Shown: positions 4,332-45,094, counted from the first letter of the stretch. The stretch: DNA of 64,000 nt from a virus (IMGVR_UViG_3300046472_000374), one strand, 5' to 3'. Notes: a model not told the origin generated them from the sequence alone. Made by a program: numbers and translations.

Positions 4332-6161
4332 CTAAAAGTCCATACGTAGGCGAATGAGGAGCTTGTCCTTTTCGCGCTTACGGATGGGAGAGGCGAGCTT
4401 GGCGACGGCGACGAGCTTGTGGTCCTCGTTGTAGATTCCGACCGCGGAGATCCAGGTGGTCGGAGGAGAGTTCTTCACCATGTGCTTGTTGTAAAACTGG
4501 CTCTTCGGGTCCATGTTGAGAGAGCTGAACGTCGGGTTGTTGGACCCGTTCGCCTTGCCCGCTCCGATCCTGCACTGGAAGACCTTGGTGGTCAGCTTCT
4601 CCTGGCCGGAGAACGCGATCTGGAGGGTGTCCGGGAACGCGAGGCTGGCGTCTCGACCGATGGCTCCGAAGTCGAAGAAGCTGGGGTCCGTGATGACGAT
4701 CAGGCCCTCGTTGTAGAACACGTTGCCGACCTTGTTCCACCTCAGGCCGGTGAAGTTCTCTCCAGAGACCTGCCGGGTCATAGAGCCGGAGACGTACAGG
4801 CGACCATGCCCGTCGTCCTGGACCACGCGCTGGATGCCCTTGTTCATGTAGGCGTTGCAGACCATGTACACCGAACCGGTGGCGATCTGTCTGCCGTAGA
4901 ACATGGACGGGACGTGGACGATCCTGAAGAAGTCCACCTCGTCATCGATTCTGGTCAGGGTCCCGATGGAGTTGGGATTGTCCACCGGCTGCCAGGTCGG
5001 TGAGACCGGGAGGGCGATGTTGAAGTTGTGGAAGTCCCCATGCAACGGGCTGGCTCCGAACCCGTAGTCGAAGGCGCCCGATCCCTGGACGTACGGGTGG
5101 GCGTGCCCCTGCGGTCCGTCGTTGAACCTGGCGTAGTGGACGAAGGTCGGATCCGAACCGGAGGTGAGGTTCACCTGGTTCCAGGTCCCAGAGACCTGCG
5201 CCTGGGTCAGGGCCCGGCTCCAGATCCTCGAGTCGTAGATGTACCCGAAGTAGGAGTTGAACGGGAAGAGGGTCGAGGCCGTGAAGGAGGATGTCCCCAC
5301 GCCGGTGACCGACGAGCTGGTGATCAGCTCAGACCCCACCACGAGGAACCCCGATGCTGTCAGAGGAACCGCGAGCGTACCCGTATAGGCGTACGTACCC
5401 GCGCTACCGGTGTTGATGTAGAAGGACGCCGAGGACCCGTTGGCCACGAACAGGCAGTCTGCCCATACGCCACGTTGAAGCGCCACGGAGGAGGTCAGGA
5501 TGGTCGCCCCGTCCGAGAAGGCCAGCTGGCCGGTGGAGCCGGTGATGTAGAACTTGAAGCGTCCCTTCTGGGACTGGAGGACAAAGTCGTTGCTGCCGGT
5601 CACGTGCATCGGCTTCGCCTGGACCTCCAGGGTGAAGCTTGAGCTGACCGTCGGCAGGAGGCTGCCGGAGAACGTGACGAACGATCCTGTGCGGGGAAGG
5701 GTCTGCCAGAAGAACAACGAGTAGAAGTCGTAGGACCCCGTGAAGTACTGGCTGTTGACCCGCGAGTAGTAGTCGAAGAGTCCGACGACCGGGTTGAAGT
5801 GCTCTTGGTACCAGTCGTCGCTGGTGATCAGGAAGTCTGCCGCGCCAGCGACCCCTCCGACGTCCGTGTTGCGGGCCTTGACGAAGTGGACGGAGCCGGT
5901 GGACGGGTAGCTGCCGGAGACGAAGATGACCTTGTCGATCGAGTTGGTGTCGACCGGGTCGAGGGGGTAGAGGTTGATGCCGGAGGGAGCGCCGTTGTAG
6001 ACGTCAGTACGGGCGCGCACGCCTTCGTACAGGCTCAGTGAGCTGGACGGTCCGATGTTGCCGTGCCAGCCCGCCGAGCCCGAAGCAAGGACGATCCTGG
6101 GGGTGGTTGTTACGACCGCCCAAAGGATGTCCTTCTCTTCGAACTTGAAGTAGACGCTCAC
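4332..6161 (-). CDS. Putative baseplate/virion protein with LamG domain
   Basis: LamG-like core (GYIYDSRIWSRALTQAQV); C-terminus TWISAVGIYNEDHKLVAVAKLASPIRK paralogous to the next gene; 12 [ST]GS motifs. Confidence 0.6.
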   Translation of the reverse strand: MSVYFKFEEKDILWAVVTTTPRIVLASGSAGWHGNIGPSSSLSLYEGVRARTDVYNGAPSGINLYPLDPVDTNSIDKVIFVSGSYPSTGSVHFVKARNTDVGGVAGAADFLITSDDWYQEHFNPVVGLFDYYSRVNSQYFTGSYDFYSLFFWQTLPRTGSFVTFSGSLLPTVSSSFTLEVQAKPMHVTGSNDFVLQSQKGRFKFYITGSTGQLAFSDGATILTSSVALQRGVWADCLFVANGSSASFYINTGSAGTYAYTGTLAVPLTASGFLVVGSELITSSSVTGVGTSSFTASTLFPFNSYFGYIYDSRIWSRALTQAQVSGTWNQVNLTSGSDPTFVHYARFNDGPQGHAHPYVQGSGAFDYGFGASPLHGDFHNFNIALPVSPTWQPVDNPNSIGTLTRIDDEVDFFRIVHVPSMFYGRQIATGSVYMVCNAYMNKGIQRVVQDDGHGRLYVSGSMTRQVSGENFTGLRWNKVGNVFYNEGLIVITDPSFFDFGAIGRDASLAFPDTLQIAFSGQEKLTTKVFQCRIGAGKANGSNNPTFSSLNMDPKSQFYNKHMVKNSPPTTWISAVGIYNEDHKLVAVAKLASPIRKREKDKLLIRLRMDF

Positions 6162-6179
6162 CCGGGAGCCCTCCCGGGC

Positions 6180-7175
6180 TTAATAGTCCAGCCGGATGCG
6201 GAAGATGCCCTCGTTGTCCGGGGACTTCGTGATGGGCTTGTTGACCTTCGCCGCCGCCAGCAGGTTGTCGTTCGAGTCGTACAGACCGATCGTCGTGATG
6301 TACGTCCTGGTCTGCAGGATGTTCGAACCCGACGTGACTCGGATACGCTGGTTGTCGTCCACGAAGGTGGGGTTGGAGGAGTAGTTGAACTCCGTGTTCT
6401 CTGCGCGGCAGAAGTACGCCGTGCTGAACAGGTTGGTCTGGTTGTGGAAGTTGATCTTGTCGATCACCTTGCGGAACCCGTCGACCAGCTGGTTGATCGA
6501 GGACGACGCCTCGGCCTGGTTCAGGTTGACGGTGCCGGACCACGTCTGCGACGCCGGGTAGGTGCCGTCCGGGATGATGATGACGCCGGCGTTGTACCAC
6601 ACCTGGCCGACTTCGGAGCCGGTGGCGTTGTACTTCAGCGGGGCGTAGTCTCCGCCCGGTCCCTGCTTGAAGCTGGTGGCCGCGCCGTCGTCCGAGCCGG
6701 AGAACTGTCCGGGGACGGCGGTCGTGTTGAACACCAGCGAGGTCGCGCCCTTCTTGATCTCGTCCTTCGAGATGTTGCGCTTCACCATGATGAAGAAGCA
6801 CTCGGGCTGGGTCGTGTTGTTGATGACGAACTGCGCGTTCGGATCACCGAGCAGCGTGCTGGCCATCATGCGGTAGATCTTGATCTTCTCGTTCTGGGAC
6901 GAAGAGACCGTGACCGGCAAGTTGAACAGCGAGCTGGTGTGGTAGCCGTACGTGAAGTCCATCAGGGCGGTGGACAGCGACGAGGTCGGGCTGGAGTCGT
7001 AGACCGACTCCCAGTACCCGCCGAGGTCTGTTCCCGCCGAGGCGGACGCGATGTTCGTGAAGAACTTCACGTTTAGGTCGTTGGCATAGATCGACGACGA
7101 GACCGAGACCACCTCGTTGATTGCCGAGATGACGGAGGCGACGTCGTGTGCCAGATCGAATGTCTTAAAGCTCAC
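6180..7175 (-). CDS. Putative baseplate/virion structural protein
   Basis: C-terminus YITTIGLYDSNDNLLAAAKVNKPITK..RIRLDY resembles the C-terminal half of tail-collar/baseplate domains; structural context. Confidence 0.55.
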   Translation of the reverse strand: MSFKTFDLAHDVASVISAINEVVSVSSSIYANDLNVKFFTNIASASAGTDLGGYWESVYDSSPTSSLSTALMDFTYGYHTSSLFNLPVTVSSSQNEKIKIYRMMASTLLGDPNAQFVINNTTQPECFFIMVKRNISKDEIKKGATSLVFNTTAVPGQFSGSDDGAATSFKQGPGGDYAPLKYNATGSEVGQVWYNAGVIIIPDGTYPASQTWSGTVNLNQAEASSSINQLVDGFRKVIDKINFHNQTNLFSTAYFCRAENTEFNYSSNPTFVDDNQRIRVTSGSNILQTRTYITTIGLYDSNDNLLAAAKVNKPITKSPDNEGIFRIRLDY

Positions 7176-7187
7176 TGGGTCTTCTCC

Positions 7188-7904: not shown

Positions 7905-7918
7905 CTCTTTTTCTCCTA

Positions 7919-7947
7919 GGGCTGAGATTAAGTATTCTTCTCAGCCC
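7919..7947. promoter_or_regulatory. Perfect 9-bp inverted repeat with AT-rich loop
   Basis: GGGCTGAGA-TTAAGTATTCT-TCTCAGCCC in the 57-nt intergenic gap; no U-tract follows on either strand. Confidence 0.55.
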
Positions 7948-7961
7948 AAAATCGACTAAGA

Positions 7962-10421
7962 CTACTTGATACCCTGCGGCATAAACACCTTCTTCGCCGT
8001 AGCCTTCAGGGACGAAGCGGTCTTCGGAAGGTTCTGGTTCGGGATCCAGTCCCGGAAGACTGGCGGCGGGGTCGGGTTCTTGCCCACCGGCTGCGGTCTG
8101 GCGGTCGGCATCTTCATGGAAGGTACCACCACCGCCACCTTCTGGTTCTCTACCCGGGTCTTCTGGTTGTTGTAGACCAGCTGGATCGGGTAGGTCTTGA
8201 TCTCCCCCGTGTCCAGAGACTCCAGACGTACGTAGTACTGCGAGTTGTCCAGGGCGATGTTACCGTTGGCCTCTCGGCCCGCGAAAGTGAAGGGAGCGTC
8301 GTTCGGGACAACCGTCTCCGTGTAGAACCTCCGGAACGGGTAGGTGGCGAACGCACCGTGAAGCTCCAGCTTCACTCCAGCCTGGCTCACGAAATCGACC
8401 CCATACTCACCATAGGTGTTGTAGTCCTGGTTCAGGCGGGTCGCCAGTTGGTCTGAGAGGGGGCTGTATTCGTTGTGCCTGGTGAAGGTCTGGGCCGCGT
8501 ACACGTACCGGATGTGGTTCTTCTGGAAGAAGTCCACGTCCGTGTCGTAGAAGAGGACGTTCTCCGGTCCCCACTTGCTCCCGATCTCCATCCAGCCCGT
8601 CAGGTCCGACCCGTTCTGGTCCTGGAGCTTCCTGAAGAGGCGCATGTAGTAGATGTCCCGCTGCTGGTTCAGGGGGAGCTTGAAGTTCACCACGATCTGC
8701 TTCCGGGCGGAGTCCGGGCGGACCGTCATCTCGTCCGGAGGAGAGGGAGCGACGGTGTCCATGACGATGCCGTACGCCCAGGTCTTGCTCCATTCCCCGT
8801 TGAAATAGGAGCTGCGGTACGGGGCGAGGGCCTGCGTCTGGCTGGTGTGGCCTGAGAACAAGGTCGGTTCCGGTCCCATGACGCCCATGTAGCTCGGACG
8901 GGTCCAGCGGAGGATGGCCCGGATACGGTAGCGGTAGACCTGCGCGTACTTGATCTTCGAATCGATGTACGTGTTGAGGTCGATGTGGGGAAGGTCGATC
9001 GTCTCCTTCAGGACGAAGGCCCCGCTCGAGTTCCGCTCGTACTTCTCCAGGACGTAACCCACGTACTCGATGTGGGAGAGGCCCGGCGGGGACGCGAATC
9101 CCGGGATCTCGATCTGCCGTGGGTGGTTCTGAAGGCCGGAAGCGTGGAGGACCTCCAGGTTCGGGAGGAACTGGGCCAGCGCCACGGCGTTCTCCGCGTG
9201 CTCCGGGGTCTGCATGGTGTTGATCTTCTCCGGCTGGAGGAGACCACCGATGCTCGGCATGATGAACTTGGCCCGGATCTGGGTGGAGGTGTCCACCGGG
9301 ATCTGGATTTCGGGCGCCTGGATCTTCTGCAGGTGTTCCAGGATCGGGTCCACAGCGATGGCCATGGACTCTCCGGAGCTGGCGGTCCTCGCCTTGAACC
9401 CCAGCGGCGGGCTGGAGGCGTGGACACCCTGGATGAACATGAAACCACCCTGGGTCGGGGGCTTTTCGATCGAGAACTTCCCCGAGAACAGGTTGGTCTT
9501 GTCGTCCGTCTTGCCCGCCGAGATGGCTTCGTTGTTCACACGGCCAGCGTACATGACACCGTTGGTCAGCGAGTGGATGTTGGCCTTCATCTCTTCGAAG
9601 GAGATGCCGGCAAAGTCAGGGTGCTGGAGGAACGTGTCCTCGTCCAGGTAGGCGTAGGGCTCCGTAGAGACCACCGGATGGCTGATCCCCGAGGTGTTGC
9701 TCGGCATGTCCACGACGGCGTGGATGGTACCGGGGCTGATGTGCCCGTTCGCCAGGCTCTGCTTGATGAGAGCGAAGTCGTTCAGGTGTTGCGGGGTGAA
9801 CTTGATGCCCTTGGTGGTGACCGCGGTCGGACGACGCAGTTCCGTCCCGAACTGGATGGGCTTGGTGTCGTCCCGCTTGTTGGTCGCCGGCTTGACGGCG
9901 TACTGCTTCGCCAGGTCAGGAGCCGAGTTCCACACGATGCGGTTGAACCGAGGGATGTCTTCCATCTTCCGGTCGCCGACGGCCTGGGTGTCGTCGTTCA
10001 GCTCATCCGGGACCCAGAAGTTGTAGGTCGGGAAGACCTCGATGTCGAAATCATGATAGATCGTCTCGAAGGTCGCCGGACCGGACTCCATGGAGACCAG
10101 CTCTGGCTGTACCGCCGGAGTGGTCGTGATGAACGACGGGGCTCCCGGTCCGATCTGGCTGGGGCTCGATGAGAGCGGGGCGGGAAGACGCGGCGGCGGG
10201 GAGAAGACGGTGATCGGGCTCGGAAGCGACGGGAACACCTTGTTGATCATGCTCGGGATTCCCATGTTCCCGAGCACGGGCGTGGCGACGTGATCGACCG
10301 TGATGGTCGCGTTCGAAGTCCCGAAGAGCGGACTTCCTTGGATGACGGCGGACGAAGCCTGCCCCTCGACATCGAAGGGATGGCTGAACAGTCCGAGTCC
10401 TGAGAATAGCTTGAGCGCCAT
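7962..10421 (-). CDS. Large putative virion protein with FN3-like repeats
   Basis: YRYRIRAILRW, PSPPDEMTV and YVYAAQT FN3-type strands; Pro-rich termini; structural block. Confidence 0.5.
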   Translation of the reverse strand: MALKLFSGLGLFSHPFDVEGQASSAVIQGSPLFGTSNATITVDHVATPVLGNMGIPSMINKVFPSLPSPITVFSPPPRLPAPLSSSPSQIGPGAPSFITTTPAVQPELVSMESGPATFETIYHDFDIEVFPTYNFWVPDELNDDTQAVGDRKMEDIPRFNRIVWNSAPDLAKQYAVKPATNKRDDTKPIQFGTELRRPTAVTTKGIKFTPQHLNDFALIKQSLANGHISPGTIHAVVDMPSNTSGISHPVVSTEPYAYLDEDTFLQHPDFAGISFEEMKANIHSLTNGVMYAGRVNNEAISAGKTDDKTNLFSGKFSIEKPPTQGGFMFIQGVHASSPPLGFKARTASSGESMAIAVDPILEHLQKIQAPEIQIPVDTSTQIRAKFIMPSIGGLLQPEKINTMQTPEHAENAVALAQFLPNLEVLHASGLQNHPRQIEIPGFASPPGLSHIEYVGYVLEKYERNSSGAFVLKETIDLPHIDLNTYIDSKIKYAQVYRYRIRAILRWTRPSYMGVMGPEPTLFSGHTSQTQALAPYRSSYFNGEWSKTWAYGIVMDTVAPSPPDEMTVRPDSARKQIVVNFKLPLNQQRDIYYMRLFRKLQDQNGSDLTGWMEIGSKWGPENVLFYDTDVDFFQKNHIRYVYAAQTFTRHNEYSPLSDQLATRLNQDYNTYGEYGVDFVSQAGVKLELHGAFATYPFRRFYTETVVPNDAPFTFAGREANGNIALDNSQYYVRLESLDTGEIKTYPIQLVYNNQKTRVENQKVAVVVPSMKMPTARPQPVGKNPTPPPVFRDWIPNQNLPKTASSLKATAKKVFMPQGIK

Positions 10422-10424
10422 GTC

Positions 10425-12728
10425 TTATCTCAACAGCTTGTTGCGAATGCCGACCGGGACGGTGGTGTTGTCATCACGGTTGGCAAGCGGAGCTTGGCGT
10501 GGGGGTGCGACCGGGATACCCGCCACCCGCGAAGGCGGCACGAACACCGTGGCCGGAGGAGGCGGCGGAACGTAGACGAACTGCGGGGGAGGAGCCGGCT
10601 GGGTGACTCCCTGCGCCGTCGTGTCTCCGCCGCCACGGTTCGGACCTTCGTCAGCGAACAGCCTGATCGTCCTGGTCAGGTCGCTGAGACCGTCGTAGGT
10701 CGTGAGGTCGATGATGCCGTTCTGGCTGGCCGGCAGCTGGTTCAGGTACTGGACGTCTCCCTGGGTGACCGTGTCATTGGTGACGTTTGGGTCCGGGACG
10801 TTGATCTCCTGCGGGGTGGCGTGGACGTTCCCTCCCGTCCCACCGGCGTGGCCCAGTCGTAGACCAGTGATGGAAGAACGATCGGTCGCCAGTCCCTTGT
10901 TGTTGAGCAGGGCCGGAAGGTTGGTCCCCAGGGTCTTGAGGTCCAGTGTCGCCGTCTCCGGATCGACCGCGGCGATGATGCCGCTCAGCAGCGGGCTGGT
11001 CCCGACGTTCAGGGTGCCGGCGCGGTTCAGTCCGGCGGGGTTCGGCTGCTCCGTCCCCTCGAAGTAGTAGAGGATGCCGGTCTCGTGGAGGATCTCGGCG
11101 ATGGTCTGGCTCACGCCGAAGTTGTTCACGCTGTCCGTGACGGCCTTGACGACGTCGTTCACGTTCTTTGGGGTCACGAAGAGACCGCGGTCCATGAAGT
11201 CCAGGAGGTGCGACAGGCGCGCGCCCAGGTACGAGAACCGACGGGTGTCCAGGTTGGAGTCGTTCCGGTTGACCGAGGCCCGTCCGTTGACGGCCGCGAG
11301 GATCCAGTCGAACTGGCTGTTCCCGAAGAGCTGCAACGAGATGATCGGCCACGGGTTGATGTCGTCCGTGTTGGGCGATCCGTAGTACTGCTGGGCCAGC
11401 TGGGCAAGGGTCGACTGCACCTTGGACCGGGCCGTGTTGGCCAGGGTCGTCGGGTTGGTCGGAACCTGGAAGAGCTGGTCCTTGGCGTCGTTCTGGATCT
11501 GGTATGCCTGCACCGTGTAGAGGTAGTACTGGTCCGGCGAGCAGGAGTTGTCCAGGTACGCCCAGACCTGGGTGTCGTCGATGGTGTCGTAGAAGGTCAG
11601 GATGTGCGCGTTCAGGTAGTCCCGCAGGTGGTCCATGGACATCTGCAGGTCCTTGTTGCTCACCTGGATGGAACGCTCGGTGTTGTCGAACACCCCGCGA
11701 CGCTTCAGGATGTAGCCACTGGCGTCCGGGATCTTCTTCCACCCGATGACCATGCCCTGGAGCTCGTCACCCGGCTGGAAGTCCGCCGTGAAGACGACCT
11801 TGGGCTGACGCTTCCTGAAGTCGAAGGCCGAGAGCAGCTCCAGGTCCTTCTGGGCCCGGATCTCGTCGGCCGATGGGAGGAACCTCATCAGGTCGGTGGC
11901 TGGGTTGCCGCCCGAGCCGTACCCGTCCATCGAAAGGGTGAAGGAATTGATCTGGGCGGCCACGTTCGTGACCTTCGTGAGGTCCAGCTTTCCCTGGGAC
12001 TGGGCGGTCAGGAGGTCCACATAGGCCCCGATGTTGAAGACCAGAGTGTCTGCGTCGGTCGAGGTGATGCTCAGGCCCAGGCCGGAGTTTCCGACCCGCT
12101 TGGCGTTGGCCTCACGGGCCGCCTGGATGTTCGAGATGAGCACGAACGGGTTGTCCGGCGGCTGCAGTCCCTGGTTGGAAGCCTGGGCGATGAAGGCGGA
12201 CGTCCGGTTGATGAAGTCAAAGACGTTGTTCCGGGCCTGCATGGACGCGTTGCGGACGGCGACGCTGTCGCTCGTGTCGGTCGGAGTGATCAGGGAGTAG
12301 GAAGGCGCAGCCACGTTCACGTACGGGAACACCATCCCGGGGGAAGTCGGCAGCGCACGCTGGACAGAGATGGCCGGTTGGACCGTGTGAATCGGAGAAA
12401 GGGCCACCATCGCCAGGGTCTTTTGGGCCACTCCCGAAGGCACTCCGAGGAGGGCGGCGACCTTGTTGCACTTGTCCAGGTAATCCTGCCCTATCGATGC
12501 CGGAGGGGTTCCCATCACATCGGCGAAGTCCCAGATGGTCTTCTGGTTGGCCGTGAGGTTGGGAGGGACGATCGGCGGCTGGATGATGACCTGGTGCGAC
12601 ACCGGAGGAGGAGGCACGAGGACCGAGTGGTTCGGAGGCGCAGGAGTAGGCCGGGGCGCAGCAGGCTGGCGGACGCCCGTGGGCGGTCCGACGACGACTC
12701 CTCTAGATCCTCCTCCGAGATTGATCAT
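10425..12728 (-). CDS. Large putative virion protein, Pro-rich termini, one FN3-like segment
   Basis: 767-aa ORF coupled to neighbours; GWKKIPDASGY...YYLYTVQAY. Confidence 0.5.
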   Translation of the reverse strand: MINLGGGSRGVVVGPPTGVRQPAAPRPTPAPPNHSVLVPPPPVSHQVIIQPPIVPPNLTANQKTIWDFADVMGTPPASIGQDYLDKCNKVAALLGVPSGVAQKTLAMVALSPIHTVQPAISVQRALPTSPGMVFPYVNVAAPSYSLITPTDTSDSVAVRNASMQARNNVFDFINRTSAFIAQASNQGLQPPDNPFVLISNIQAAREANAKRVGNSGLGLSITSTDADTLVFNIGAYVDLLTAQSQGKLDLTKVTNVAAQINSFTLSMDGYGSGGNPATDLMRFLPSADEIRAQKDLELLSAFDFRKRQPKVVFTADFQPGDELQGMVIGWKKIPDASGYILKRRGVFDNTERSIQVSNKDLQMSMDHLRDYLNAHILTFYDTIDDTQVWAYLDNSCSPDQYYLYTVQAYQIQNDAKDQLFQVPTNPTTLANTARSKVQSTLAQLAQQYYGSPNTDDINPWPIISLQLFGNSQFDWILAAVNGRASVNRNDSNLDTRRFSYLGARLSHLLDFMDRGLFVTPKNVNDVVKAVTDSVNNFGVSQTIAEILHETGILYYFEGTEQPNPAGLNRAGTLNVGTSPLLSGIIAAVDPETATLDLKTLGTNLPALLNNKGLATDRSSITGLRLGHAGGTGGNVHATPQEINVPDPNVTNDTVTQGDVQYLNQLPASQNGIIDLTTYDGLSDLTRTIRLFADEGPNRGGGDTTAQGVTQPAPPPQFVYVPPPPPATVFVPPSRVAGIPVAPPRQAPLANRDDNTTVPVGIRNKLLR

Positions 12729-16800: not shown

Positions 16801-16810
16801 CTTATCCTTC

Positions 16811-16817
16811 TAAATAG
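16811..16817 (-). promoter_or_regulatory. Putative late-promoter motif CTATTTAG
   Basis: CTATTTAGAAGGATAAG-ATG directly upstream of 16800. Confidence 0.55.
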
Positions 16818-16830
16818 GCCTACCCTCGGT

Positions 16831-19356: not shown

Positions 19357-19361
19357 CGGTC

Positions 19362-19368
19362 TAAATAG
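19362..19368 (-). promoter_or_regulatory. Putative late-promoter motif CTATTTAG
   Basis: CTATTTAGACCG-ATG upstream of 19356. Confidence 0.55.
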
Positions 19369-19371
19369 GCC

Positions 19372-25128: not shown

Positions 25129-25143
25129 CTACGCCTCCTTTCC

Positions 25144-26295: not shown

Positions 26296-26304
26296 CTCTA
26301 TCTC

Positions 26305-27414: not shown

Positions 27415-27423
27415 GGTCTCTCC

Positions 27424-28605: not shown

Positions 28606-28656
28606 TCTTTCTAAGTTCCCTTGACCTCAGGTCTAAATAGATACCGAGACCGCTTT

Positions 28657-29649: not shown

Positions 29650-29652
29650 GTT

Positions 29653-30657
29653 TTAGATCCTATACGTGAAGAAGGAACCGGCTGAGCCCGAGTTCGGTGG
29701 TGTCACCGATCCCGAGAAACCGATCCCGGGCGCCCCGCCCGAAATGTCTATCTGGTCCTTCAGGCTGTTCCGGAGGAGGAGCGACGAGTAGACCAACATG
29801 GCAAACCCGCCACCGCCGCCGCCACCGCCTGCTCCACGCGAGAAGCTGTTTCCTCCGCTGCCGCCCCTGGCCGTCACCTTCCCCAGGAAGATGAGATCAC
29901 GAGCCGCGATGTAGACCACTCCACCACCGCCACCGCCCCAGCCTGAACGCGGACGGACACCGATCGATCCAGAATTTCCACACGCTCCGGCGCCGCCACC
30001 GCCGCCACCCGCAAACGGGACAAACGAACCGGTCGCCCCCGAAGGGAGTCCCATGTTCCCACAGGTCATGGAGGCGAAGAAGTCATGGAGGCCGCTGAGC
30101 GTCGCAGTCTGGACAGAACCAGAAGAACCGGTCGCGCCCGTGTAGGTCGTCAGAGCTCCTGAAAGGAAGGCCTGTGCGTCGCCTCCACGTCCACCCGCTC
30201 CACCAAGGAAGTAGAACGGGTTGGTCGGCTGATCGACCGCCGGGACCAGCGTGCCCACCGCTCCACCATCGTGCAGCAGAGATCCGGACGGGAAGCCGCC
30301 GTTGTACATGCCAGCTCCACCACGCCCACCTCCGCCGGTCGATCCCAGGGGACCTCCAGGGGTACCCGCGGGAACGGAGGAGCTGACTTCAGCGGTCGAA
30401 CCGTTGGAGTTGCGGGCGTTGGAACCGTCGTTGGAGACGGTGGCCAGCGAGAACTGGTCTCCCAGGATGAAACACTGGCGACGGCACCTGATCTTGAAAC
30501 CGTTGGAAAAGATACGGACACCCTTGCCGATGGTCAGGATGTCGTAATTGACGTCTCGGATGAGGACCGTGTCGGAAGTCAGAGACACGACGCCGTCCGT
30601 ACCGTCTCCGTAGACGGCATCGAACATTCCGGTGTTGTTTCCGCGGAAGGCCGGCAC
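29653..30657 (-). CDS. Glycine-rich putative fibre protein (paralog A)
   Basis: FDAVYGDGTDGVV N-terminus, poly-Gly blocks, C-terminal GSFFTY; GTG start. Confidence 0.6.
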   Translation of the reverse strand: MPAFRGNNTGMFDAVYGDGTDGVVSLTSDTVLIRDVNYDILTIGKGVRIFSNGFKIRCRRQCFILGDQFSLATVSNDGSNARNSNGSTAEVSSSVPAGTPGGPLGSTGGGGRGGAGMYNGGFPSGSLLHDGGAVGTLVPAVDQPTNPFYFLGGAGGRGGDAQAFLSGALTTYTGATGSSGSVQTATLSGLHDFFASMTCGNMGLPSGATGSFVPFAGGGGGGAGACGNSGSIGVRPRSGWGGGGGGVVYIAARDLIFLGKVTARGGSGGNSFSRGAGGGGGGGGFAMLVYSSLLLRNSLKDQIDISGGAPGIGFSGSVTPPNSGSAGSFFTYRI

Positions 30658-30658
30658 C

Positions 30659-31090: not shown

Positions 31091-31091
31091 G

Positions 31092-31649
31092 TTAGATCGC
31101 CGGGCTCTCCGCGATGATCGTTTCCGTACCGTCGATGGACCACCTGATGACGAGCTGCGAGCGGTTCACGGCGGGAGATTGCCCCGTTGGCTGTCCGTTG
31201 TTCTTCAGATAGACGATCGCTCCGCCGGACGAGCCGAACGGGAATCCCGGCGTGGTGCTGGGGTTCGATCCGGTCGGCAACACGATCTCGGAGTACTGCT
31301 GGTAGAGGACGTTCGCGGCGGCGGCGGCGATGACGAAGTCACCCGGCGTCGCCCCGCCGAAGGTGCCCTTGTGCTGGATGATGGCGCCGTCCTGGCGGAG
31401 GAAAATGAAGTCCTTCGTGATGTCCGCGCCCGTGGGAAGAGATCCCGAGGGAAGCCGGGTGCCAAACCCGAAGAAGTTTCCTGACGTGATCGCGAAGCGG
31501 ATGTCGGTGAGCGCCTGGCTCACGACGTTGTAGTCCACCGCATCTACGAACTTGGTCGGATCTCCGCCCACAGGGATGGGCGTCCCGTCTGTCTTCGGGA
31601 AGTTCAGCGACCCCGAGTTGGTTGTTCCGTCGTAGACCCAGTTGCTCAT
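31092..31649 (-). CDS. Putative fibre/appendage protein
   Basis: FPKTDG...VDAVDYN.....L.DI resembles fibre N-terminal attachment segments; CTAGTTATA motif upstream. Confidence 0.45.
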   Translation of the reverse strand: MSNWVYDGTTNSGSLNFPKTDGTPIPVGGDPTKFVDAVDYNVVSQALTDIRFAITSGNFFGFGTRLPSGSLPTGADITKDFIFLRQDGAIIQHKGTFGGATPGDFVIAAAAANVLYQQYSEIVLPTGSNPSTTPGFPFGSSGGAIVYLKNNGQPTGQSPAVNRSQLVIRWSIDGTETIIAESPAI

Positions 31650-31672
31650 CTTCTAGATTCTCCGTCTTATAA

Positions 31673-34600
31673 CTAGGTGCGCACGTAGACTGTGATCACG
31701 CCTTCCGGGATGAAGGGCACGGTCTGACGTCTATAATTCCACTGGAGCTTCGGCCTCTCCAGCATGTGGCTCTCCACCACGAACTCGTCTCCAAGGAAGA
31801 TCGAGCGGGCCGGCAGAAGACGCTGCACCATCGTGATGAAGCTTCTGTCGAAGAACTCCAGCATGTCCGCGAAGACCCTGAAGTTCAGCCGTCCCTGGAG
31901 CCGCTTGAAGTACTGCCGGCGGATGACCTCTATGTCTTGGTACGTCGCCCGGTAACGATTGGCCGGCAAGCCAATGGCATTGTTGAAGTTGTCCATGGTC
32001 GAGATCGCCTGGGAGATGTCCTCGTTCAGGGCGTCAATCATGTTGAACTCCAGGGCCAGCGCCTGGTTGTCGTAGGTCACGTCTGCCGGCTTCACTTCCG
32101 AGCTCTGCAGGATGCGGATCTTGTCCTCGTTCCAGCTGAAGTCGGGGGAGGCGATGTAGTTGTAATCCAAGAGGAACTTCTCGAATGGGGCACGGAGGGG
32201 AGAGAAGCCGGCTCCCGAACCTGTGATGCCGTTCTGCGAGATGTCCTGGAAGATGTTCTGGCCCGAGATCGTTCCCCCGATCGAGGCGCTGGCGTTGTCG
32301 TTCAGGCGCCAGTGGAGGGCCAATGCCCCCATGTCGTTGGGGTAGTCGACTCCGTAGCTCTGGAAGTTCAGGGTGTGATCGAAGATCTCCGTCTTCGTCA
32401 GGTCCTTGTTCCAGACACGGGCTTCCTGCATCCACCCCTGGGCCTTGAGATTGTTGGCGGCTCCGACCACGAGCTGCCAGATGGAGCTTCCTGAAGACTC
32501 CGGCGCCGACAGGGTGGCCGACAGGTTGACGTCGACCTCGTCGTAGTTCAGGCGGTGAAGGCGAAGGTTCAGCGTCCCCGACAGGGAGTTCCGGTGGACC
32601 GAGACATTGTACCACTGCTCATTGAAGAGCGGGATGTTCGGGATGCTGAGTAGCCCCTCGCTTCCTGTCAGGAACAGGGAGCCTGTCTCGCTGCCCACGA
32701 ACGGCGTCGTCCAGTAGACCTGGTACGCCAGCTGCTGTGAACCAGTCGGGACGAGGATGCCACCGCTCGAAGAAAGAGCGGTCTGATAGAGAGCGAAGAG
32801 CGATCCGGTCGTGATCAGCGGGGTCAGCTCGGTGCTGGTCGACAGCGGGAAGGAGAACCTCACCTCTGCCGAGAGGGCCGAACCCGTGAACGGGACGGAG
32901 GTCACCGAACCCGTCAGCGATCCGGAGCCGTGGCTACCAGAGAAGACCATGGCATACACGCTCTTGTCGGCGTGGATGCGGCTGGTCTGGATGCCGACGT
33001 TCGGCTTGTAGCCGTACTCCTTCAGGCGAACGAAGTTCTTGTTCACGCCGTAGATGCGGAAGAACGACTCAACGCTCTCCCGTGTACCCTTGCTCTTGTA
33101 GAGGTACATCAGGTTGACGAGGGTACGCTTCCAGAACTCGTTCTTGATCTGGTAGAGCTTGACGTCCAGCTCCTTGTTCGCGTCCTGGTTCGCCAGGACG
33201 TTCTTGCCAAGGAGGTACTGGAACGCATCCGCGCTGAGGAAGTTCCCGGTGAACTCCCAGCCGAAGAACTTGGCGATGTCGGCGAGCAGAGCGTCCGGGG
33301 TCTGGTTGAACTGGGTGTAGTTCGCCCGGAGGACCTTCGTGAACTGGTCGATCTTCACCTTGATCTGGTCGAAGTTGCGAGCCAGGATGTAGAGGAAGTT
33401 CTGGAGGACCTGCGTGTTCTCCAGGTTCTCGAGGTTCAGGAAGTTCTCGGGGACGAGCCGAGTGATGATGTTGTCACTGACCCGGTCAAACGCGCTTCCC
33501 GAAGCCTGCTGGGTGGTGATGAGGGTCTGCACCTCGGGCGAATTGAAGTACGACGAGAGCATGAGGCTCGGCTGAGCGTAGGGGATCAAGGATCCGGACC
33601 CGCGCAAGCCGGTCCAGTAGTTCATGATGCGTCCATTGATCCGGTGACCCGAGAAGTCGAGCACCAGCGGGTCGTTCCCGTCGTCCGGGTTGATGGACCC
33701 CGACTCGTTGAAGTGCCAGCAACCCATCAGGTTGTTCTGGGCATGGGCCTGGATGTTGTACGTGCCGGTGAAATCCGCCAGCTGCAAGGCCGAACGCCAC
33801 ACCCTCACCTCATCGAGGGCACCGGAGATGAGTGCCGTCACCTTCCCGGATAGGGTACCACTGCCAATATAGGCCTGGGCATTGGCGATGTTTATGGGGC
33901 CTCCGATGAGGCTGGAGGCGGAGGCGATCGCGGTCGGGAAGATGTTCGCCGAACCGGTGTAGGCCACGAGGACCGGGAAATTCGTGTTGGTCCGGTCATA
34001 GACGAAGGCGTAGTAGGTCGTCTGTCCGTCCGTCCTCGGGGCGGAGACCTCGGAGGTCACGGAGCCCGAGACCATCCGGAAGGTCATGTTGCTGCCCGAG
34101 GCGTAGACGGTGTAGCCGTCTCCCGTGGCGCCCACCTTCTGGATGACGACCATCGCGGCCGAGTTCGTGAAGGCGCCCGAAAGGTTGCACCAGAACTCCA
34201 CCGCCAATGAACCCGTTCCCGGGCTCAGGATGCCGGCCTGCTGGGTGGTTCCCGCCCGTGTGTCTCCGTAGATCTGACCGAGGTCGACGATGGAGATGAA
34301 GGAGGAGGAGATCGCGGAATTGAACCTGAGGTGCCCGGTGTTCTTCGGCCAGACGCTGGAGAGGTACCTCTGGTACGGGTCCAGGTCGAACGTGAACGTG
34401 TCGATGACGTCGATGCTGGCGTCGTAGGGGTACTCGTTCAGGATCTTCTCGGCGGTGAGGTTGAAGTAGTCGAGGGCCGAATTGAAGAAGACGAAGTTCT
34501 TGAAATCGGAGTAGTCGATCTTGGACTCTGCCACCTGAAACTGGCGGAGCTTGCCGATGATGTAGTTCTGCTCTTCCGGCTTGACCGAGATGGTCGCAAG

Positions 34601-34678
34601 GCTCTGCGCAGTACCGGCGACGACCTCGCCGGGCTTCTTCATCTGGTCATCGAAAAGTGAGAAGAGCTTGCTAGCCAT
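31673..34678 (-). CDS. Baseplate wedge protein (P2 gpI/T4 gp7-like) with two LamG domains
   Basis: LLADIAKFFGWE...YLYKSKGTRESVESFFRIYG gpI-type motif; two LamG units (LDEVRVW; MQEARVW); 17 [ST]GS. Confidence 0.7.
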   Translation of the reverse strand: MASKLFSLFDDQMKKPGEVVAGTAQSLATISVKPEEQNYIIGKLRQFQVAESKIDYSDFKNFVFFNSALDYFNLTAEKILNEYPYDASIDVIDTFTFDLDPYQRYLSSVWPKNTGHLRFNSAISSSFISIVDLGQIYGDTRAGTTQQAGILSPGTGSLAVEFWCNLSGAFTNSAAMVVIQKVGATGDGYTVYASGSNMTFRMVSGSVTSEVSAPRTDGQTTYYAFVYDRTNTNFPVLVAYTGSANIFPTAIASASSLIGGPINIANAQAYIGSGTLSGKVTALISGALDEVRVWRSALQLADFTGTYNIQAHAQNNLMGCWHFNESGSINPDDGNDPLVLDFSGHRINGRIMNYWTGLRGSGSLIPYAQPSLMLSSYFNSPEVQTLITTQQASGSAFDRVSDNIITRLVPENFLNLENLENTQVLQNFLYILARNFDQIKVKIDQFTKVLRANYTQFNQTPDALLADIAKFFGWEFTGNFLSADAFQYLLGKNVLANQDANKELDVKLYQIKNEFWKRTLVNLMYLYKSKGTRESVESFFRIYGVNKNFVRLKEYGYKPNVGIQTSRIHADKSVYAMVFSGSHGSGSLTGSVTSVPFTGSALSAEVRFSFPLSTSTELTPLITTGSLFALYQTALSSSGGILVPTGSQQLAYQVYWTTPFVGSETGSLFLTGSEGLLSIPNIPLFNEQWYNVSVHRNSLSGTLNLRLHRLNYDEVDVNLSATLSAPESSGSSIWQLVVGAANNLKAQGWMQEARVWNKDLTKTEIFDHTLNFQSYGVDYPNDMGALALHWRLNDNASASIGGTISGQNIFQDISQNGITGSGAGFSPLRAPFEKFLLDYNYIASPDFSWNEDKIRILQSSEVKPADVTYDNQALALEFNMIDALNEDISQAISTMDNFNNAIGLPANRYRATYQDIEVIRRQYFKRLQGRLNFRVFADMLEFFDRSFITMVQRLLPARSIFLGDEFVVESHMLERPKLQWNYRRQTVPFIPEGVITVYVRT

Positions 34679-34853
34679 TCATCTCCGCGTCGCAGAATCG
34701 GACGTACTCTTCTGCAAGAGCCTCGTACGTTTCATCGTCCCCGTCCTGTGCCAGACGGACGAGCGCTTCCTCGTACTTCTTGCGGGTCGAGAACCTGAAC
34801 TCCGGTGTCTTTTGGTCCTGGTCTTCCATCTCTAGAGCTTGCATTGTCCTCAC
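34671..34853 (-). CDS. Small acidic hypothetical protein
   Basis: 60-aa ORF overlapping both neighbours by a few bases. Confidence 0.4.
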   Translation of the reverse strand: MRTMQALEMEDQDQKTPEFRFSTRKKYEEALVRLAQDGDDETYEALAEEYVRFCDAEMNG

Positions 34854-36256
34854 GTTATCCTGAACTTGAATCCCCGGTCGATGATCTGCTTCCGACCGTC
34901 TTGATCAAATAGGAAGACAACGCGATAGACCTGCCCCGGTGCGAGGCAACTCATGAAGAACGAGAAGTAGTTTCCGTTCCCATCGTAGCTGAGACGGGTC
35001 CAGTCGGTCCCGCCCTGGTACGATCCCGTGCCGAAAGGCACGACCTGCTCCTTCGTCCGATCGTTGTCGATCCTGTAGTAGCCGCGGTTGATGATGGTCC
35101 CCACCGGCGAGACCGACCCGGTATTCACGACGGCCGGGTTGTAGTCGAACGGACGGACGAAGACCCGCAGCTCGGGATCTTCATCGACCGAGTACTCATT
35201 CTTGAGGTTCGGCATGTCCACTTCGAACCGGCCCGTAGACAACGTGGGCTGGGCGAAGTTGTCTGTCGGCATGAAGTTGCCGGTCATGTAGGCCCGGTTG
35301 CCGAGGAACCAGATGTCCGAGAACACCGATCCCGAGTAGGAGCCGGTCGGCAGCAACATGCTGCAGCTGTAGATTCCAGGCTGACCGGTCCAGCTTGCGG
35401 AAGCGACCAACAACGTCCCGCTCAGATCCTCGATGCGGACGGTCAGGCAGTCCGGACCGGACGTGATCCCCGGGATGTTGACCGGCTGGCCGCGCACCTC
35501 GTTGTAGAGGTAGAGCGTGCCGGAGTTGTCGAACACGAAGTTCGAACGGTCGTCCCTGATGGAGTCGTCCCAACGCGCCTCGAGGTACGGGCGACGGTCC
35601 AGGAAGTTGGTGGACCGACCGTGGAACTTCTTGACGAAGTAGTCAAACGGGTCTACCTCCTGCGAGGATGACACACGAAGCAGGAACCCGTTGTTCCCAT
35701 TGGTCGGATTGAGCGGAAGCGGGTTGATGCCCAACCAGCGTTCTACCTGGGTGGAGACATCCGCATCGACGTTCTCCGGTCCTTGGTCGACGTGGAAGGT
35801 GTCGATCAGTCCGGTCTCCACGTCGCCGCCGGGAGTGGTCCAGTAGGTGGTCTTCTTGGCCTGCACCCAGTTCGCCTGTCCGAGGTCGAGGAAAGTCTCC
35901 TCGTCGAAGCCCGGACCCTCGTCCCAGGCGGTCGTCACCGAGAGAATCTCGATGTCGTAGCTGGAAGGCAGGGTCTCGGCGTGGCGAGCATCCTTCAGAT
36001 TCAGCCGCCACATCGGGTGTTCCGGAGCCTGCAACGATGCGGTCAGGTCCTGGAAGGCTCCCAGGTCGAACTGCATCAGGATGTGACCGAGACTCGAGCT
36101 CCCGTTCCATCCGAGAGCGCCGGAGACTCCAGCCTTCTTGAAGAGGTCGAGGATCTCGCTGGCGCCGAAGTTGGAGCCGGTGACCGGGACAGTCGGGAAC
36201 TGGCGGACCAGGTTGGTGATCCACGTGTCCTTCTGTGGGAAGATTCTGAAGATCAT
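34850..36256 (-). CDS. Putative baseplate/virion structural protein
   Basis: Start moved to MIFRIFPQKDTWITN (TAATG overlap with upstream stop); NFGASEIL, FHGRST..RPYLEARWDD. Confidence 0.6.
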   Translation of the reverse strand: MIFRIFPQKDTWITNLVRQFPTVPVTGSNFGASEILDLFKKAGVSGALGWNGSSSLGHILMQFDLGAFQDLTASLQAPEHPMWRLNLKDARHAETLPSSYDIEILSVTTAWDEGPGFDEETFLDLGQANWVQAKKTTYWTTPGGDVETGLIDTFHVDQGPENVDADVSTQVERWLGINPLPLNPTNGNNGFLLRVSSSQEVDPFDYFVKKFHGRSTNFLDRRPYLEARWDDSIRDDRSNFVFDNSGTLYLYNEVRGQPVNIPGITSGPDCLTVRIEDLSGTLLVASASWTGQPGIYSCSMLLPTGSYSGSVFSDIWFLGNRAYMTGNFMPTDNFAQPTLSTGRFEVDMPNLKNEYSVDEDPELRVFVRPFDYNPAVVNTGSVSPVGTIINRGYYRIDNDRTKEQVVPFGTGSYQGGTDWTRLSYDGNGNYFSFFMSCLAPGQVYRVVFLFDQDGRKQIIDRGFKFRIT

Positions 36257-38124
36257 TACTGCGACACTCCCTGGATGTCCACCATCGGGTACTTCACCTC
36301 GAAGATCGAGTCCTGCGGGCAGTAGATGATCTCGTTCTGACGCTGGTGAGAGACGTCGAACCTCGTGGTGGAGTAGGGCAGGGTGATCTGACTGCCCGGC
36401 AGCGGAGCGTTTCCGATCACGTTGGTGAAGGTCAGCTCGTACACCGAGATGACTCCCTGGACCGCCTGCAGGTTGGCCGACAGCTCGGAGACCACGATGG
36501 GGTGACCGATCTGCTGCGAGTCGATGTCGAAGTAGTCCTGCACCACCGCGAGGCACTTGGCCAGCACCTCGGTCCGGTTCACCTTCGGGGAGACGGTCAC
36601 GCCGAACTTCACCCGCAGGTTGATGATCTTGGCGTCCAGGATGTTGATCCCGTCCGTGATCATCCGATACGGAGTCAGGTAGGTAGCGATGTTCGCCTTC
36701 AGGTTGGCGGACGCCAGCTGCAGGTGGTTGTCCGCGTCACGCGCCAGGACGTGAACGTCGATGGCGAGCGGGTTGATGCTGTCCCGGCGGACGTACACCT
36801 TGTCCGGCTTGCCGAACTTGGCCGGCAGGGTCAGGATGCGGGCGATATAGTCTTCCCTGGTGACGACGCGGTTCTGCGCCGCGAAGAAGGCGGCCGAGTT
36901 CGCCTTGACCTCTCCGATGGTCTCCTCCGGAGATCCACCGTCCGTCTTCTGGACGTTGATGCACTCCAGCGACTGGACCACGGCGCCCTTCTTGGTGGCG
37001 TCCAACGAGGTGGTCGAGAAGTCCAGCTCGGCGTTCGTGACCGTCTTGATGCTGCCGGCGATCACGTTCGTCTGCGGTCCGCCACCCACTCTATAGGAGA
37101 CGGTGAGCGTCGTGTTGTACGGGCTGAGTCCCAGAGTCTGGGTCTTCAGGAAGTTCTGCGGGTCGATCGCGAAGGAGGCGAAGGTCCGACGACCGGCCAG
37201 CGGTAGGGCGTAGTCGGCCAGGTTCGGGATGAGCTCGTCGTCGAAGTTGACGCCGTCACCCGAGCCGAAGATCAGGGAGGTGGTGCTGTCCGTCGGGTCT
37301 CGGTCGGTGACGTACCGACGGGGGACGGTAACCAGCTTGAGCAGGTAGGGCACGTCCGTGTTGTCGGTCAGGTCCGAGTTCACGTCGGCGTCGAACACCG
37401 CTTCCTGGGCCAGGTAGTCCACCTCGGTCCAGGGGTTCCCCTCGGAGTCATAGACAGAGAGGACCTCGATCACGTCCGGGTTGCTGAGCTTGATCTGGAG
37501 GAACTGCTCGAAGTTGGTGATCTTGAAGGTCTCGACGATCGTCTGACCGGCCGTGATCTCCATGTCCTTGCGGATGGCGTAGTGGGTCGGGAGTCCGGTC
37601 GCCGAGTCGAACTGGGAGCCGGTAACGAGACGGGGGTAGTCCGGGCTGGAGGCGCTGAAGACCACATCGTCCAGCGTCTCGAAGATGGTGTTGCTCGGTC
37701 CCTGGACCTGGGCACCGGCTCGGAGGATCGGGGCGAACGAGTCATCCGGGATGGACTGGCCGTTGACGGTGATGGCCGGGACCTCGACGAAGAACGTCTC
37801 CTTGCCTCGAGCGGCGCGCTTTCCCTGCGGACGGTAGCCGAGGGACTTGGCGAACGACACGACGTTCTCGATCTGCTGGGCCGACTCCTGCTTCACTTCC
37901 TCGAACTGCATGTCCTGGTAGAGCGAGAGGATGTCCCCGATGAACGCCTGGAGTTCCAGGATCGCCATACCGGGCGATGACTCGTTGTAGTCCTGGAAGA
38001 CGCCCGAGTGGTGCGCCTGCGAGAACTGCATGAGGTCGCGCTTGAACCCCTGGAAGTCCTTGTTCAGGTACTTGACAGTCTGGTCCTTGGTGAAGGCGGT
38101 CTTGTTCTGCTTCGGTGCCGGCAT
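36256..38124 (-). CDS. Baseplate wedge subunit (T4 gp6 / baseplate J-like)
   Basis: YLNKDFQGFKRDL, GMAILEL.AFIGDILSLY.D, AKSLGYRP, GGSPEET..EVK.N....FAAQNRVVTREDY. Confidence 0.85.
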   Translation of the reverse strand: MPAPKQNKTAFTKDQTVKYLNKDFQGFKRDLMQFSQAHHSGVFQDYNESSPGMAILELQAFIGDILSLYQDMQFEEVKQESAQQIENVVSFAKSLGYRPQGKRAARGKETFFVEVPAITVNGQSIPDDSFAPILRAGAQVQGPSNTIFETLDDVVFSASSPDYPRLVTGSQFDSATGLPTHYAIRKDMEITAGQTIVETFKITNFEQFLQIKLSNPDVIEVLSVYDSEGNPWTEVDYLAQEAVFDADVNSDLTDNTDVPYLLKLVTVPRRYVTDRDPTDSTTSLIFGSGDGVNFDDELIPNLADYALPLAGRRTFASFAIDPQNFLKTQTLGLSPYNTTLTVSYRVGGGPQTNVIAGSIKTVTNAELDFSTTSLDATKKGAVVQSLECINVQKTDGGSPEETIGEVKANSAAFFAAQNRVVTREDYIARILTLPAKFGKPDKVYVRRDSINPLAIDVHVLARDADNHLQLASANLKANIATYLTPYRMITDGINILDAKIINLRVKFGVTVSPKVNRTEVLAKCLAVVQDYFDIDSQQIGHPIVVSELSANLQAVQGVISVYELTFTNVIGNAPLPGSQITLPYSTTRFDVSHQRQNEIIYCPQDSIFEVKYPMVDIQGVSQ

Positions 38125-38129
38125 CTACT

Positions 38130-38537
38130 TTACCCTCCCCCGGGGCCGGGGACGACTTGGAACAGAGACGCCACGTTGGTCGGCTTGCTGACCAGGAAGA
38201 ACTTCATGGCGACCCCCACCCCGTTGGCTGGGACTCTCGAATCATCCTCGTGGAACGTGATCACCAGGTCCTGGAGCCTGACGAAAGGAAGCCACTTCTG
38301 GAGCTGGTCCACCACCCGGTCGGACATCTTCTGACGGAGCACGTCGTTCTTCAAGGGCTCGAAGAGGAACTCCACGAAGTTGCAGCCGAGGTGGAAATGC
38401 ATGGGCCTATCGCCCCAGTTCGTGACCAGGAGCGACTTGATGTTCTGCTTGGCCGCTTCTACCTCGTCGTCCGTGAAGGCGAGAACGCCCAGCGAACCGG
38501 TAGACTGCGTGAAGGGAACTGTCAATCCAATAGGCAT
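38130..38537 (-). CDS. Baseplate wedge subunit (T4 gp25-like)
   Basis: KQNIKSLLVTNWGDRPMHFHLGCN...LFEP; start placed at MPIGL (38537). Confidence 0.85.
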   Translation of the reverse strand: MPIGLTVPFTQSTGSLGVLAFTDDEVEAAKQNIKSLLVTNWGDRPMHFHLGCNFVEFLFEPLKNDVLRQKMSDRVVDQLQKWLPFVRLQDLVITFHEDDSRVPANGVGVAMKFFLVSKPTNVASLFQVVPGPGGG

Positions 38538-45092: not shown

Positions 45093-45094
45093 GC

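Follow-up and report, generated by a model that had tools for sequence, protein, structure and literature searches.

Why does the tripeptide [ST]-G-S (Ser or Thr, followed by Gly and Ser) recur so often in the virion proteins of the virus IMGVR_UViG_3300046472_000374? The question arose from a stretch of 64,000 nt of its DNA, here called the window, the minus strand of which carries a baseplate and fibre module and a cluster of glycan genes. An earlier note on this DNA had proposed that the motif is a convergently selected acceptor site for the adjacent heptose/glycosyltransferase (GT) system. To judge from the protein sequences, selection maintains [ST]-G-S as a short linear motif in a very large clade of aquatic myoviruses, where it is found on outer baseplate and fibre proteins. 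Our best guess, a tentative one, is that it is recognized, or used as the acceptor, in a post-translational modification that the phage encodes and that takes place in the cytoplasm, possibly O-glycosylation by two conserved enzymes, a 440-aa glycosyltransferase (GT440) and a GT4-family enzyme (GT4).

The minus-strand genes of the window were translated, and the number of [ST]GS motifs was compared with 2000 within-protein shuffles for each protein. The counts given by the earlier note for the seven main carriers (12, 17, 12, 17, 9, 6, and 7) were all reproduced exactly. The shuffle expectation was 1.1-2.5 per protein, and in each of the seven carriers the observed count was reached by none of the 2000 shuffles. 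The enrichment thus remained after shuffling, which excludes amino-acid composition as its cause. When 14 virion proteins with 7486 residues were pooled, 99 motifs were found versus about 14 expected, namely 50 TGS (6.4 expected, z-score 17) and 49 SGS (7.9 expected, z-score 15). These two were the top deviants among all tripeptides, and the next real outliers had z-scores of about 6-8. Four additional proteins, of 331, 228, 185, and 568 aa, were enriched or borderline. The motif is written by 59 different 9-nt codon strings and is therefore a feature of the protein and not a repeat of the DNA; it is selected at the protein level. The codon diversity and the occurrence of the motif at both 30% and 60% GC exclude a DNA-level repeat or a mutational artefact.

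The low counts of the note also held for the 1041-aa GT fusion (none) and for three large consecutive proteins at 7962-16127 (0, 0, and 1). The glycan enzymes were nearly motif-free as claimed, although they contained two motifs (50874-51863 and 60514-61836) instead of one. As an enriched feature, the motif is restricted to some virion proteins and absent from enzymes, gp6, capsid, portal, and tube.

The sequence rule was analyzed by a single-position substitution scan, from which ratios of observed to expected counts were calculated. Position 1 was enriched only for Ser (6.8-fold) or Thr (9.7-fold), and every other residue reached at most 1.7-fold. At position 2, Gly was far above Ala (about 2.4-fold) and Ser, and at position 3, Ser was above Thr (about 3-fold) and Ala. 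Classic turn formers were at chance or below (DGS 0.9-fold, NGS 1.7-fold, GGS 0.3-fold), which excludes a generic turn propensity as the sole cause. Few constraints were found beyond the tripeptide: Pro was never the following residue (0 of 98), where Val, Leu, and Ala were favoured, and charged residues were at 0.31-fold at position -1 and at 0.2-0.9-fold at nearby positions. The specificity of [ST]GS looks like that of a sequon, and it favours the view that the motif is recognized by an enzyme.

The fate of single sites could be followed in the family of the 1001-aa peripheral baseplate protein. Twelve IMG/VR relatives with 42-90% identity contain 12-17 motifs each. About six alignment columns keep the motif in 10-11 of 11 sequences, with Ser and Thr swapped at position 1, and the other sites are variable. 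An exhaustive search for homologues yielded 2510 clusters, and motifs were counted in the best 150 of them (27-69% identity). These contained 1478 motifs versus 249 expected, with a median enrichment of 6.1-fold; most of the 150 were at about 4-15-fold, and only three were below 2-fold. Across the family, the motif sites of the window showed 20-66% exact conservation, and the usual replacements were the near-motif forms SGT, TGT, SAS, SSS, SGA, and TQS. Motif density appears to be maintained while individual sites turn over. In the family tree, enrichment extends across all major branches, and the two motif-poor proteins P0248 and P0251 form separate long branches inside motif-rich groups. P0248 is a full-length homologue of the 1001-aa protein without a single motif, in which the hairpin sites read DGT and VRT. 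Because it belongs to the same family and has the same length, the LamG-type fold does not require the motif. No alternative tripeptide was enriched in the motif-free lineages.

The nearest cultured relatives are the Microcystis phage Mel-JY01 and the Flavobacterium phage immuto. The gp6-like protein of the window was 34-36% identical to its counterparts in these two phages, and 35-37% in a comparison that also included the complete 197-kb IMG/VR genome G006 and LR756508, a 484-kb uncultured phage. Mel-JY01 and immuto (GC 34%) showed the same enrichment in their post-gp6 proteins, and the carriers in immuto include annotated tail fibre and spike proteins. Among 51 IMG/VR loci in which a gp6 homologue is followed downstream by open reading frames (ORFs) totalling at least 800 aa, 49 showed an enrichment of 3.4-10.9-fold. 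The GC content of the window is 60%, whereas nearly all relatives (the 51 IMG/VR loci, Mel-JY01, and immuto) have 27-36%; the window phage has thus branched off, with a high GC content, from a clade of low GC. From the CheckV estimates of its relatives, its genome should have about 200 kb, of which the window represents about a third.

Whole-genome scans identified 11 enriched ORFs of 155 in Mel-JY01, 8 of 115 in immuto, and 7 of 145 in G006. They were mainly baseplate and fibre genes plus a few others, including one annotated structural protein. In Mel-JY01, the capsid (1 motif versus 0.6), portal, tube, and replication proteins were at chance, and the tube was not among the ORFs with at least three motifs. 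This genome also contains two adjoining ORFs distant from the baseplate module, a Ser-rich ORF of 805 aa (635-3052) with 37 motifs versus 19 expected and an annotated 'structural protein' (3065-4591) with 13 versus 2.5. Because these ORFs are motif-rich, the motif carriers are not limited to baseplate genes.

LR756508 was the only clade-related complete genome without motif enrichment. Its gp6 is equally similar, yet just 1 of 327 ORFs was enriched, and the ratio for the genome was 1.4. As a control, a T4-like cyanophage had 11 motifs versus 8.6 in a wedge protein of 4067 aa, and Streptomyces phage BRock was also flat. A search of IMG/VR for close relatives of LR756508 or P0251 found none. Since the motif persists whether the GC content is 30% or 60% and whether the hosts are cyanobacteria or Bacteroidota, any modifying enzyme must be phage-borne.

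To locate the motifs, the 1001-aa protein was modelled with AlphaFold2 on the basis of an alignment of 70 sequences (predicted local distance difference test, pLDDT, 86; predicted template modelling score, pTM, 0.72). By Foldseek, the model matched laminin LG, neurexin LNS, and pentraxin. In 15 of the 17 motifs, the Gly was the first or last residue of a strand or at most 3 residues away from a strand end, whereas the background share of such positions was 32% among all residues and 45% among the other Gly. Strand interiors contained none of the 17 motifs, and one lay in a helix. In the model of the Kelch protein (pLDDT 71), all 12 motifs were found in loops or low-confidence segments. The motifs thus occupy loops and turns, and several of them are exact two-residue hairpins, at 194-196, 204-206, and 671-673 of the 1001-aa protein.

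The recurrence of the motif in unrelated folds was confirmed, as it is found in LamG, Kelch, and Gly-rich proteins and in proteins without a family match. According to Pfam, three carriers have LamG domains and one has Kelch repeats, and the other carriers matched no family; the labels 'P-domain' and 'FN3-like' of the note had no Pfam match at all. Shared LamG ancestry accounts for only 1-2 positions. Duplication of a LamG domain was rejected as a source for the same reason, as merely 1-2 motif positions are common to the 609-aa and the 1001-aa proteins. Most motifs of the 1331-aa protein lie outside the aligned LamG cores. Since a gp6-like wedge protein (phrog_219) is encoded in the window, the carriers can be placed as the post-gp6 proteins of a baseplate and fibre module.

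An enzyme recognition site fits these results better than a folding rule, because hydroxyl groups are strictly required at positions 1 and 3, turn formers are treated with indifference, and the motif is restricted to an outer subset of the virion. In addition, its density is kept in spite of turnover, it is dispensable for the fold, and it persists across hosts and GC contents. A short, over-represented, acceptor-like motif that the fold does not need is also what is generally expected of a sequon. We infer that the motif is modified, that the modification would be a sugar, and that the GT440 and GT4 enzymes would be responsible. O-glycosylation is the leading candidate because the genome is rich in virus-specific GTs, and we regard this as possible, at somewhat less than an even chance. 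The O-glycan would be attached to the near-invariant Ser at the third position of [ST]GS. GT440 and GT4, a virus-specific pair conserved in the clade, would initiate its synthesis, and lineage-specific enzymes would extend it. In the window phage, the extension could be performed by the GT9 and GT2 domains that are fused to GT4, together with a 12-kb glycan cluster.

The pair is part of a syntenic module, in which a nuclease is followed by GT440 and then by GT4. The module was found in the window (60514-62746), in three long relatives of the window's clade, in Mel-JY01 (81375-86302), in immuto (48110-51927), and in G006 (47880-56060). Every motif-rich complete or long genome, from four motif-rich lineages, has it. 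GT4 follows GT440 in all 69 IMG/VR loci with enough downstream DNA. More than 6400 metagenomic homologues of GT4 were found. In the ESM Atlas, the family is about 100% viral, and its Pfam match is of a generic GT4 type only. The 1041-aa GT4-GT9-GT2 fusion of the window is kept at 56-59% identity in the related contigs L013, L014, and L015. In its closest stand-alone homologues, by contrast, GT4 is often joined to PF18922 (DUF5672) or a GT9 domain, so the fusion partner has been swapped between lineages.

The motif-poor genome LR756508 differs in this module. It has kept the nuclease and an intact GT440 of 438 aa (LR756508.1 303935-308254, locus L112), and no GT4 and no GT-A enzyme were found in the whole genome. 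GT4 is the only window protein that is clearly common to the motif-rich genomes yet missing from LR756508; the only other difference is a short N-terminal match of the 228-aa protein. When all genes common to the motif-rich genomes were considered, seven were missing from LR756508, i.e., three GTs, PhoH, and three structural or unknown ORFs. The contrast with LR756508 favours a link between the motif and the GTs. A second candidate correlate of the motif may be GT-A226, a small GT-A enzyme encoded behind GT4 in 32 IMG/VR loci as well as in Mel-JY01, immuto, and G006. It was not found in the LR756508 genome or in the examined parts of L233 and L234, the contigs that encode P0248 and P0251, respectively. 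With the GT2 domain of the window fusion it gave a weak match (hhalign 67%).

The more specific proposal of the earlier note, a link to the adjacent heptose/GT9 system, had to be abandoned. Mel-JY01, immuto, and G006 are motif-rich, and no homologue of GT9, of the PfkB kinase, or of other lineage-specific glycan genes was found in them. The expected co-occurrence of GT9/HldE with [ST]GS enrichment therefore failed, and a heptose/GT9 association was rejected. In addition, all 'HldE', GT9, and heptose assignments in the window are below curated cut-offs. The NCBIfam heptosyltransferase scores were 41-48 bits versus cut-offs of 135-185, and the PfkB kinase, which resembles rfaE domain I, scored 127 bits versus a cut-off of 345. 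In a phmmer search of PDB chains, the 329-aa GT9 matched RfaF 1psw (E 1e-4), and the fusion matched 3tov, 2gt1, and 6dfe. The donor pathway for ADP-heptose consists of GmhA, the HldE kinase and adenylyltransferase, GmhB, and HldD. Just the PfkB kinase, as a weak match, and a generic SDR epimerase were matched in the window; no SIS isomerase/GmhA, adenylyltransferase, or HAD phosphatase match was found among its proteins.

Several results weigh against O-glycosylation by the GT440 and GT4 pair. Two motif-free contigs, L233 (P0248; Logan SRR33452760_7878) and L234 (P0251; SRR27362796_18177), carry GT440 and GT4 directly upstream of the baseplate module. The pair is intact in both, all invariant residues of GT4 are kept, and the gene order of L233 is collinear with that of motif-rich relatives such as L239, which lies on a 235-kb IMG/VR contig (IMGVR_UViG_3300009108_000751). 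The presence of GT4 is thus not sufficient for the motif. A strict co-occurrence of GT4 and the motif, which had held in five whole-genome scans, was broken by these two contigs. The earlier note had named equal enrichment in relatives without any GT cluster as a counter-argument. This was not seen, since the motif-rich genomes all have GT440 and GT4 and LR756508 is without GT4, but two independent motif-free lineages retain the intact pair. The contrast with LR756508 is itself a single event. The rest of the proteome of motif-rich genomes did not avoid the motif significantly (0.87-1.12 versus 1.25), and motifs are all but missing from the three large proteins at 7962-16127, for which neither homologues nor family matches were found. 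No similarity of the window GTs to a proven protein O-glycosyltransferase was detectable, and TibC and GtfA were absent from the PDB matches (phmmer, E<=1). A structural contribution is real, as 3-4 of the 17 motifs modelled in the 1001-aa protein are type II'-like hairpins. The Kelch fold itself accounts for some of the signal in its family, because bacterial Kelch homologues show an enrichment of 2.8-fold, compared with 6.4-fold for phage homologues. Lastly, phage GT clusters can alternatively modify DNA or host glycans (PMC12619734).

Some of these points are shared by the main rival, in which the role of the motif is purely structural. The phage lineage would have inherited [ST]-G-S as a favoured sequence for strand capping or type II' hairpins and spread it through its beta-rich tail proteins, with nothing attached to it and with possible benefits for folding speed, solubility, or assembly. 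The G-[ST] dipeptide is the classic type II' two-residue beta-hairpin, with Gly at L1 and Ser, Thr, or Asn at L2. The clustering of motif Gly near strand ends, the three exact hairpins, the six nearly invariant sites of the 1001-aa family, the bacterial Kelch baseline, and the retention of the GT pair in motif-free lineages all agree with this explanation. It does not account for the flat ratios of DGS, NGS, and GGS next to a hydroxyl requirement at positions 1 and 3, for P0248 with the same fold and no motif, or for the turnover of sites at constant density. Equally beta-rich baseplate proteins of LR756508, the T4-like cyanophage, and BRock reached only 1.0-1.4-fold, the three large neighbours at 7962-16127, of unassigned fold, are essentially motif-free, and the sites include one in a helix and many in long loops. 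We consider a purely structural origin unlikely, though a serious competitor.

Recognition by another factor would leave the motif as a target of phosphorylation, acylation, nucleotidylation, a chaperone, an assembly factor, or a protease, encoded by the phage or the host. Such a factor could explain why GT4 is insufficient, and it might be sought beyond the window, given the third of the genome that the window covers; the collinearity of L233 and L239 indicates that no gene within 10 kb upstream of the baseplate module sets the motif state. However, no kinase, acyltransferase, or protease is among the seven genes that are common to motif-rich genomes and missing from LR756508, and hosts in different phyla argue against a host enzyme, so that we hold this explanation to be improbable. 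Very improbable is a direct functional surface, i.e., many weak hydroxyl-rich contacts to host polysaccharide or to water- or ice-like layers without any modification, which would suit sites in loops and a motif limited to distal, host-facing tail proteins (including the tail fibre and spike of immuto), but not single sites scattered over many folds without arrays or pockets, the same tripeptide across hosts with very different envelopes, or the aromatic and charged residues that usually form carbohydrate-binding sites.

The features of the window are compiled in Table 1.

Table 1. Features of the window, with observed and shuffle-expected numbers of [ST]GS motifs
Feature	Coordinates	Strand	Observation
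609-aa LamG protein	4332..6161	-	12 motifs, 1.2 expected
331-aa protein	6180..7175	-	3 motifs, 0.5 expected
Three large lineage-specific proteins (819, 767, 1132 aa)	7962..16127	-	0, 0, 1 motif; internal negative controls
228-aa protein	16114..16800	-	3 motifs, 0.12 expected
841-aa virion protein	16831..19356	-	9 motifs, 1.25 expected; no Pfam/PHROG match
583-aa Kelch beta-propeller protein	19372..21123	-	12 motifs, 1.3 expected
1331-aa protein, four Laminin_G_3 stretches	21133..25128	-	17 motifs, 2.5 expected
Three proteins (383, 369, 393 aa)	25144..28605	-	2, 2, 1 motifs; chance level
Two Gly-rich proteins of about 330 aa	28657..29649, 29653..30657	-	6 and 7 motifs, 1.1 and 1.6 expected
185-aa protein	31092..31649	-	3 motifs, 0.36 expected
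1001-aa peripheral baseplate protein, two LamG/pentraxin-like jelly rolls	31673..34678	-	17 motifs, 1.1 expected
568-aa ORF beside the gp6-like wedge	34850..36556	-	5 motifs, 0.6 expected; 6-10 in relatives (446-461 aa)
gp6-like baseplate wedge protein, clade marker	36256..38124	-	phrog_219, E 2.7e-23; 1 motif, not enriched
Lineage-specific glycan genes	44145..56415	-	Not common to other motif-rich phages
GT4-GT9-GT2 fusion, 1041 aa	56431..59556	-	0 motifs; GT4 part 58348-59556 (first 403 residues)
440-aa glycosyltransferase GT440	60514..61836	-	Syntenic partner of GT4 clade-wide
PD-(D/E)XK nuclease	61844..62746	-	Flanks the GT pair in relatives too

Several of these genes deserve a comment. 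The C-terminal domain of the 331-aa protein is common to Mel-JY01, immuto, G006, and LR756508, and the N-terminus of the 228-aa protein is common to the first three. For the three proteins between them, no Pfam or PHROG match was found, and no homologue in any of the four genomes; they could be virion components that were acquired recently or that have a different location. The three proteins of 383, 369, and 393 aa are flanked by motif-rich genes, have a near-identical Ser, Gly, and Thr composition, and are probably paralogues. About 300 nt of the 568-aa ORF lie within the end of the gp6-like gene; since the relatives of this ORF are shorter, its true start is probably downstream of the listed GTG.

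The glycan cluster of the window spans 17 kb overall. Its lineage-specific part encodes a UGDH-like protein, a methyltransferase, several GTs, a cupin, the PfkB kinase, a class II aldolase/epimerase, the 329-aa GT9, a deacetylase, a GT4, and a GT2. The UGDH-like ORF (44145-45092) has 315 aa and covers only positions 71-305 of 413 of the profile, below the NCBIfam cut-off, with matches for the N-terminal and the central domain and none for the C-terminal domain. The SDR of the window scored best as GalE-like.

If the O-glycosylation reading is correct, the clade, with at least 2500 wedge-protein clusters and at least 6400 GT4 homologues, would run its own O-glycosylation with an [ST]-G-S sequon and would cover its baseplate and fibres with a lineage-specific glycan coat, a scenario that we advance with caution. 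Glycosylation of virions is already known from mycobacteriophages, but in the literature neither an SGS/TGS motif nor a defined sequon of any kind was found to be described for phages, and a defined phage sequon would be new if confirmed. Phage virion glycosylation would then have its first defined acceptor motif, and a glycan-coated tail machinery would be common in aquatic phages and not an oddity of mycobacteriophages. Such a result would matter for host recognition, for the resistance of phages to proteases and grazing, and for the annotation of tail proteins. Glycosylated virion proteins could also be predicted from metagenomes by a simple signature, and a huge virus-only GT family would receive a function. 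If the motif is structural instead, it would represent an unusually sharp, lineage-specific tripeptide rule that is useful for studies of folding and design. The cultured phages Mel-JY01 and immuto make the question directly testable by ordinary proteomics.

How would such a system compare with those already known? Enzymes of the TibC/Aah type are GT-B proteins with an iron-finger insertion that form dodecamers. Aah and TibC, related to lipopolysaccharide (LPS) heptosyltransferases, act on AIDA-I and TibA. In the cytoplasm, TibC attaches heptose to many Ser but not to Thr, at short loops (NSGG, TSAA) of a beta-helix (PMC4358343). They may serve as a precedent for cytoplasmic O-glycosylation at strand-loop-strand sites. 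The motif sites of the window are likewise at strand-loop junctions, a likeness of location only, and the window encodes two GT9-like domains and a kinase resembling rfaE domain I. In contrast, the match of these GT9 domains to LPS heptosyltransferases is weak, below the NCBIfam cut-offs, and motif-rich relatives exist without any GT9 or kinase. GtfA/GtfB, which belong to GT4, O-GlcNAcylate Ser of serine-rich-repeat adhesins in the cytoplasm, in S-x-S contexts. Here too, a GT4-family enzyme is found beside a motif of alternating hydroxyls, but there was no significant sequence match to GtfA in the PDB, and the substrates would be folded beta-domains instead of low-complexity repeats.

Proteoglycan xylosylation in eukaryotes uses a Ser-Gly acceptor with required flanking acidic residues. 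It shares the Ser beside Gly, and the UGDH-like protein and the SDR of the window could in principle provide UDP-GlcA or UDP-Xyl. It differs in that charged residues are depleted at position -1 of [ST]GS (0.31-fold), the SDR is GalE-like and the UGDH-like ORF short, and both genes are missing in other motif-rich phages. The type II' hairpin is matched by several window sites that are exactly strand-G-S-strand, but it leaves unexplained the strict Ser or Thr at position 1, the lack of NGS and DGS enrichment, the sites in long loops and in a helix, and the lineage-specific density of 6-15-fold.

Among viruses, the closest parallels are of two kinds. In the account of Freeman et al. (2023) given in PMC12619734, mycobacteriophage virions are glycosylated by phage GTs, and the glycans are on the C-termini of capsid and tail-tube subunits. 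In contrast, the candidate sites described here are tripeptides scattered in baseplate and fibre proteins, capsid and tube of Mel-JY01 are not enriched, and the phage clade and the GT families are different. The chlorovirus PBCV-1 is a eukaryotic virus, the enzymes of which glycosylate its major capsid protein with N-linked glycans at non-canonical sequons. If [ST]-G-S is an O-glycosylation sequon, the phages of this clade would, like PBCV-1, possess both their own glycosylation machinery and their own acceptor motif.

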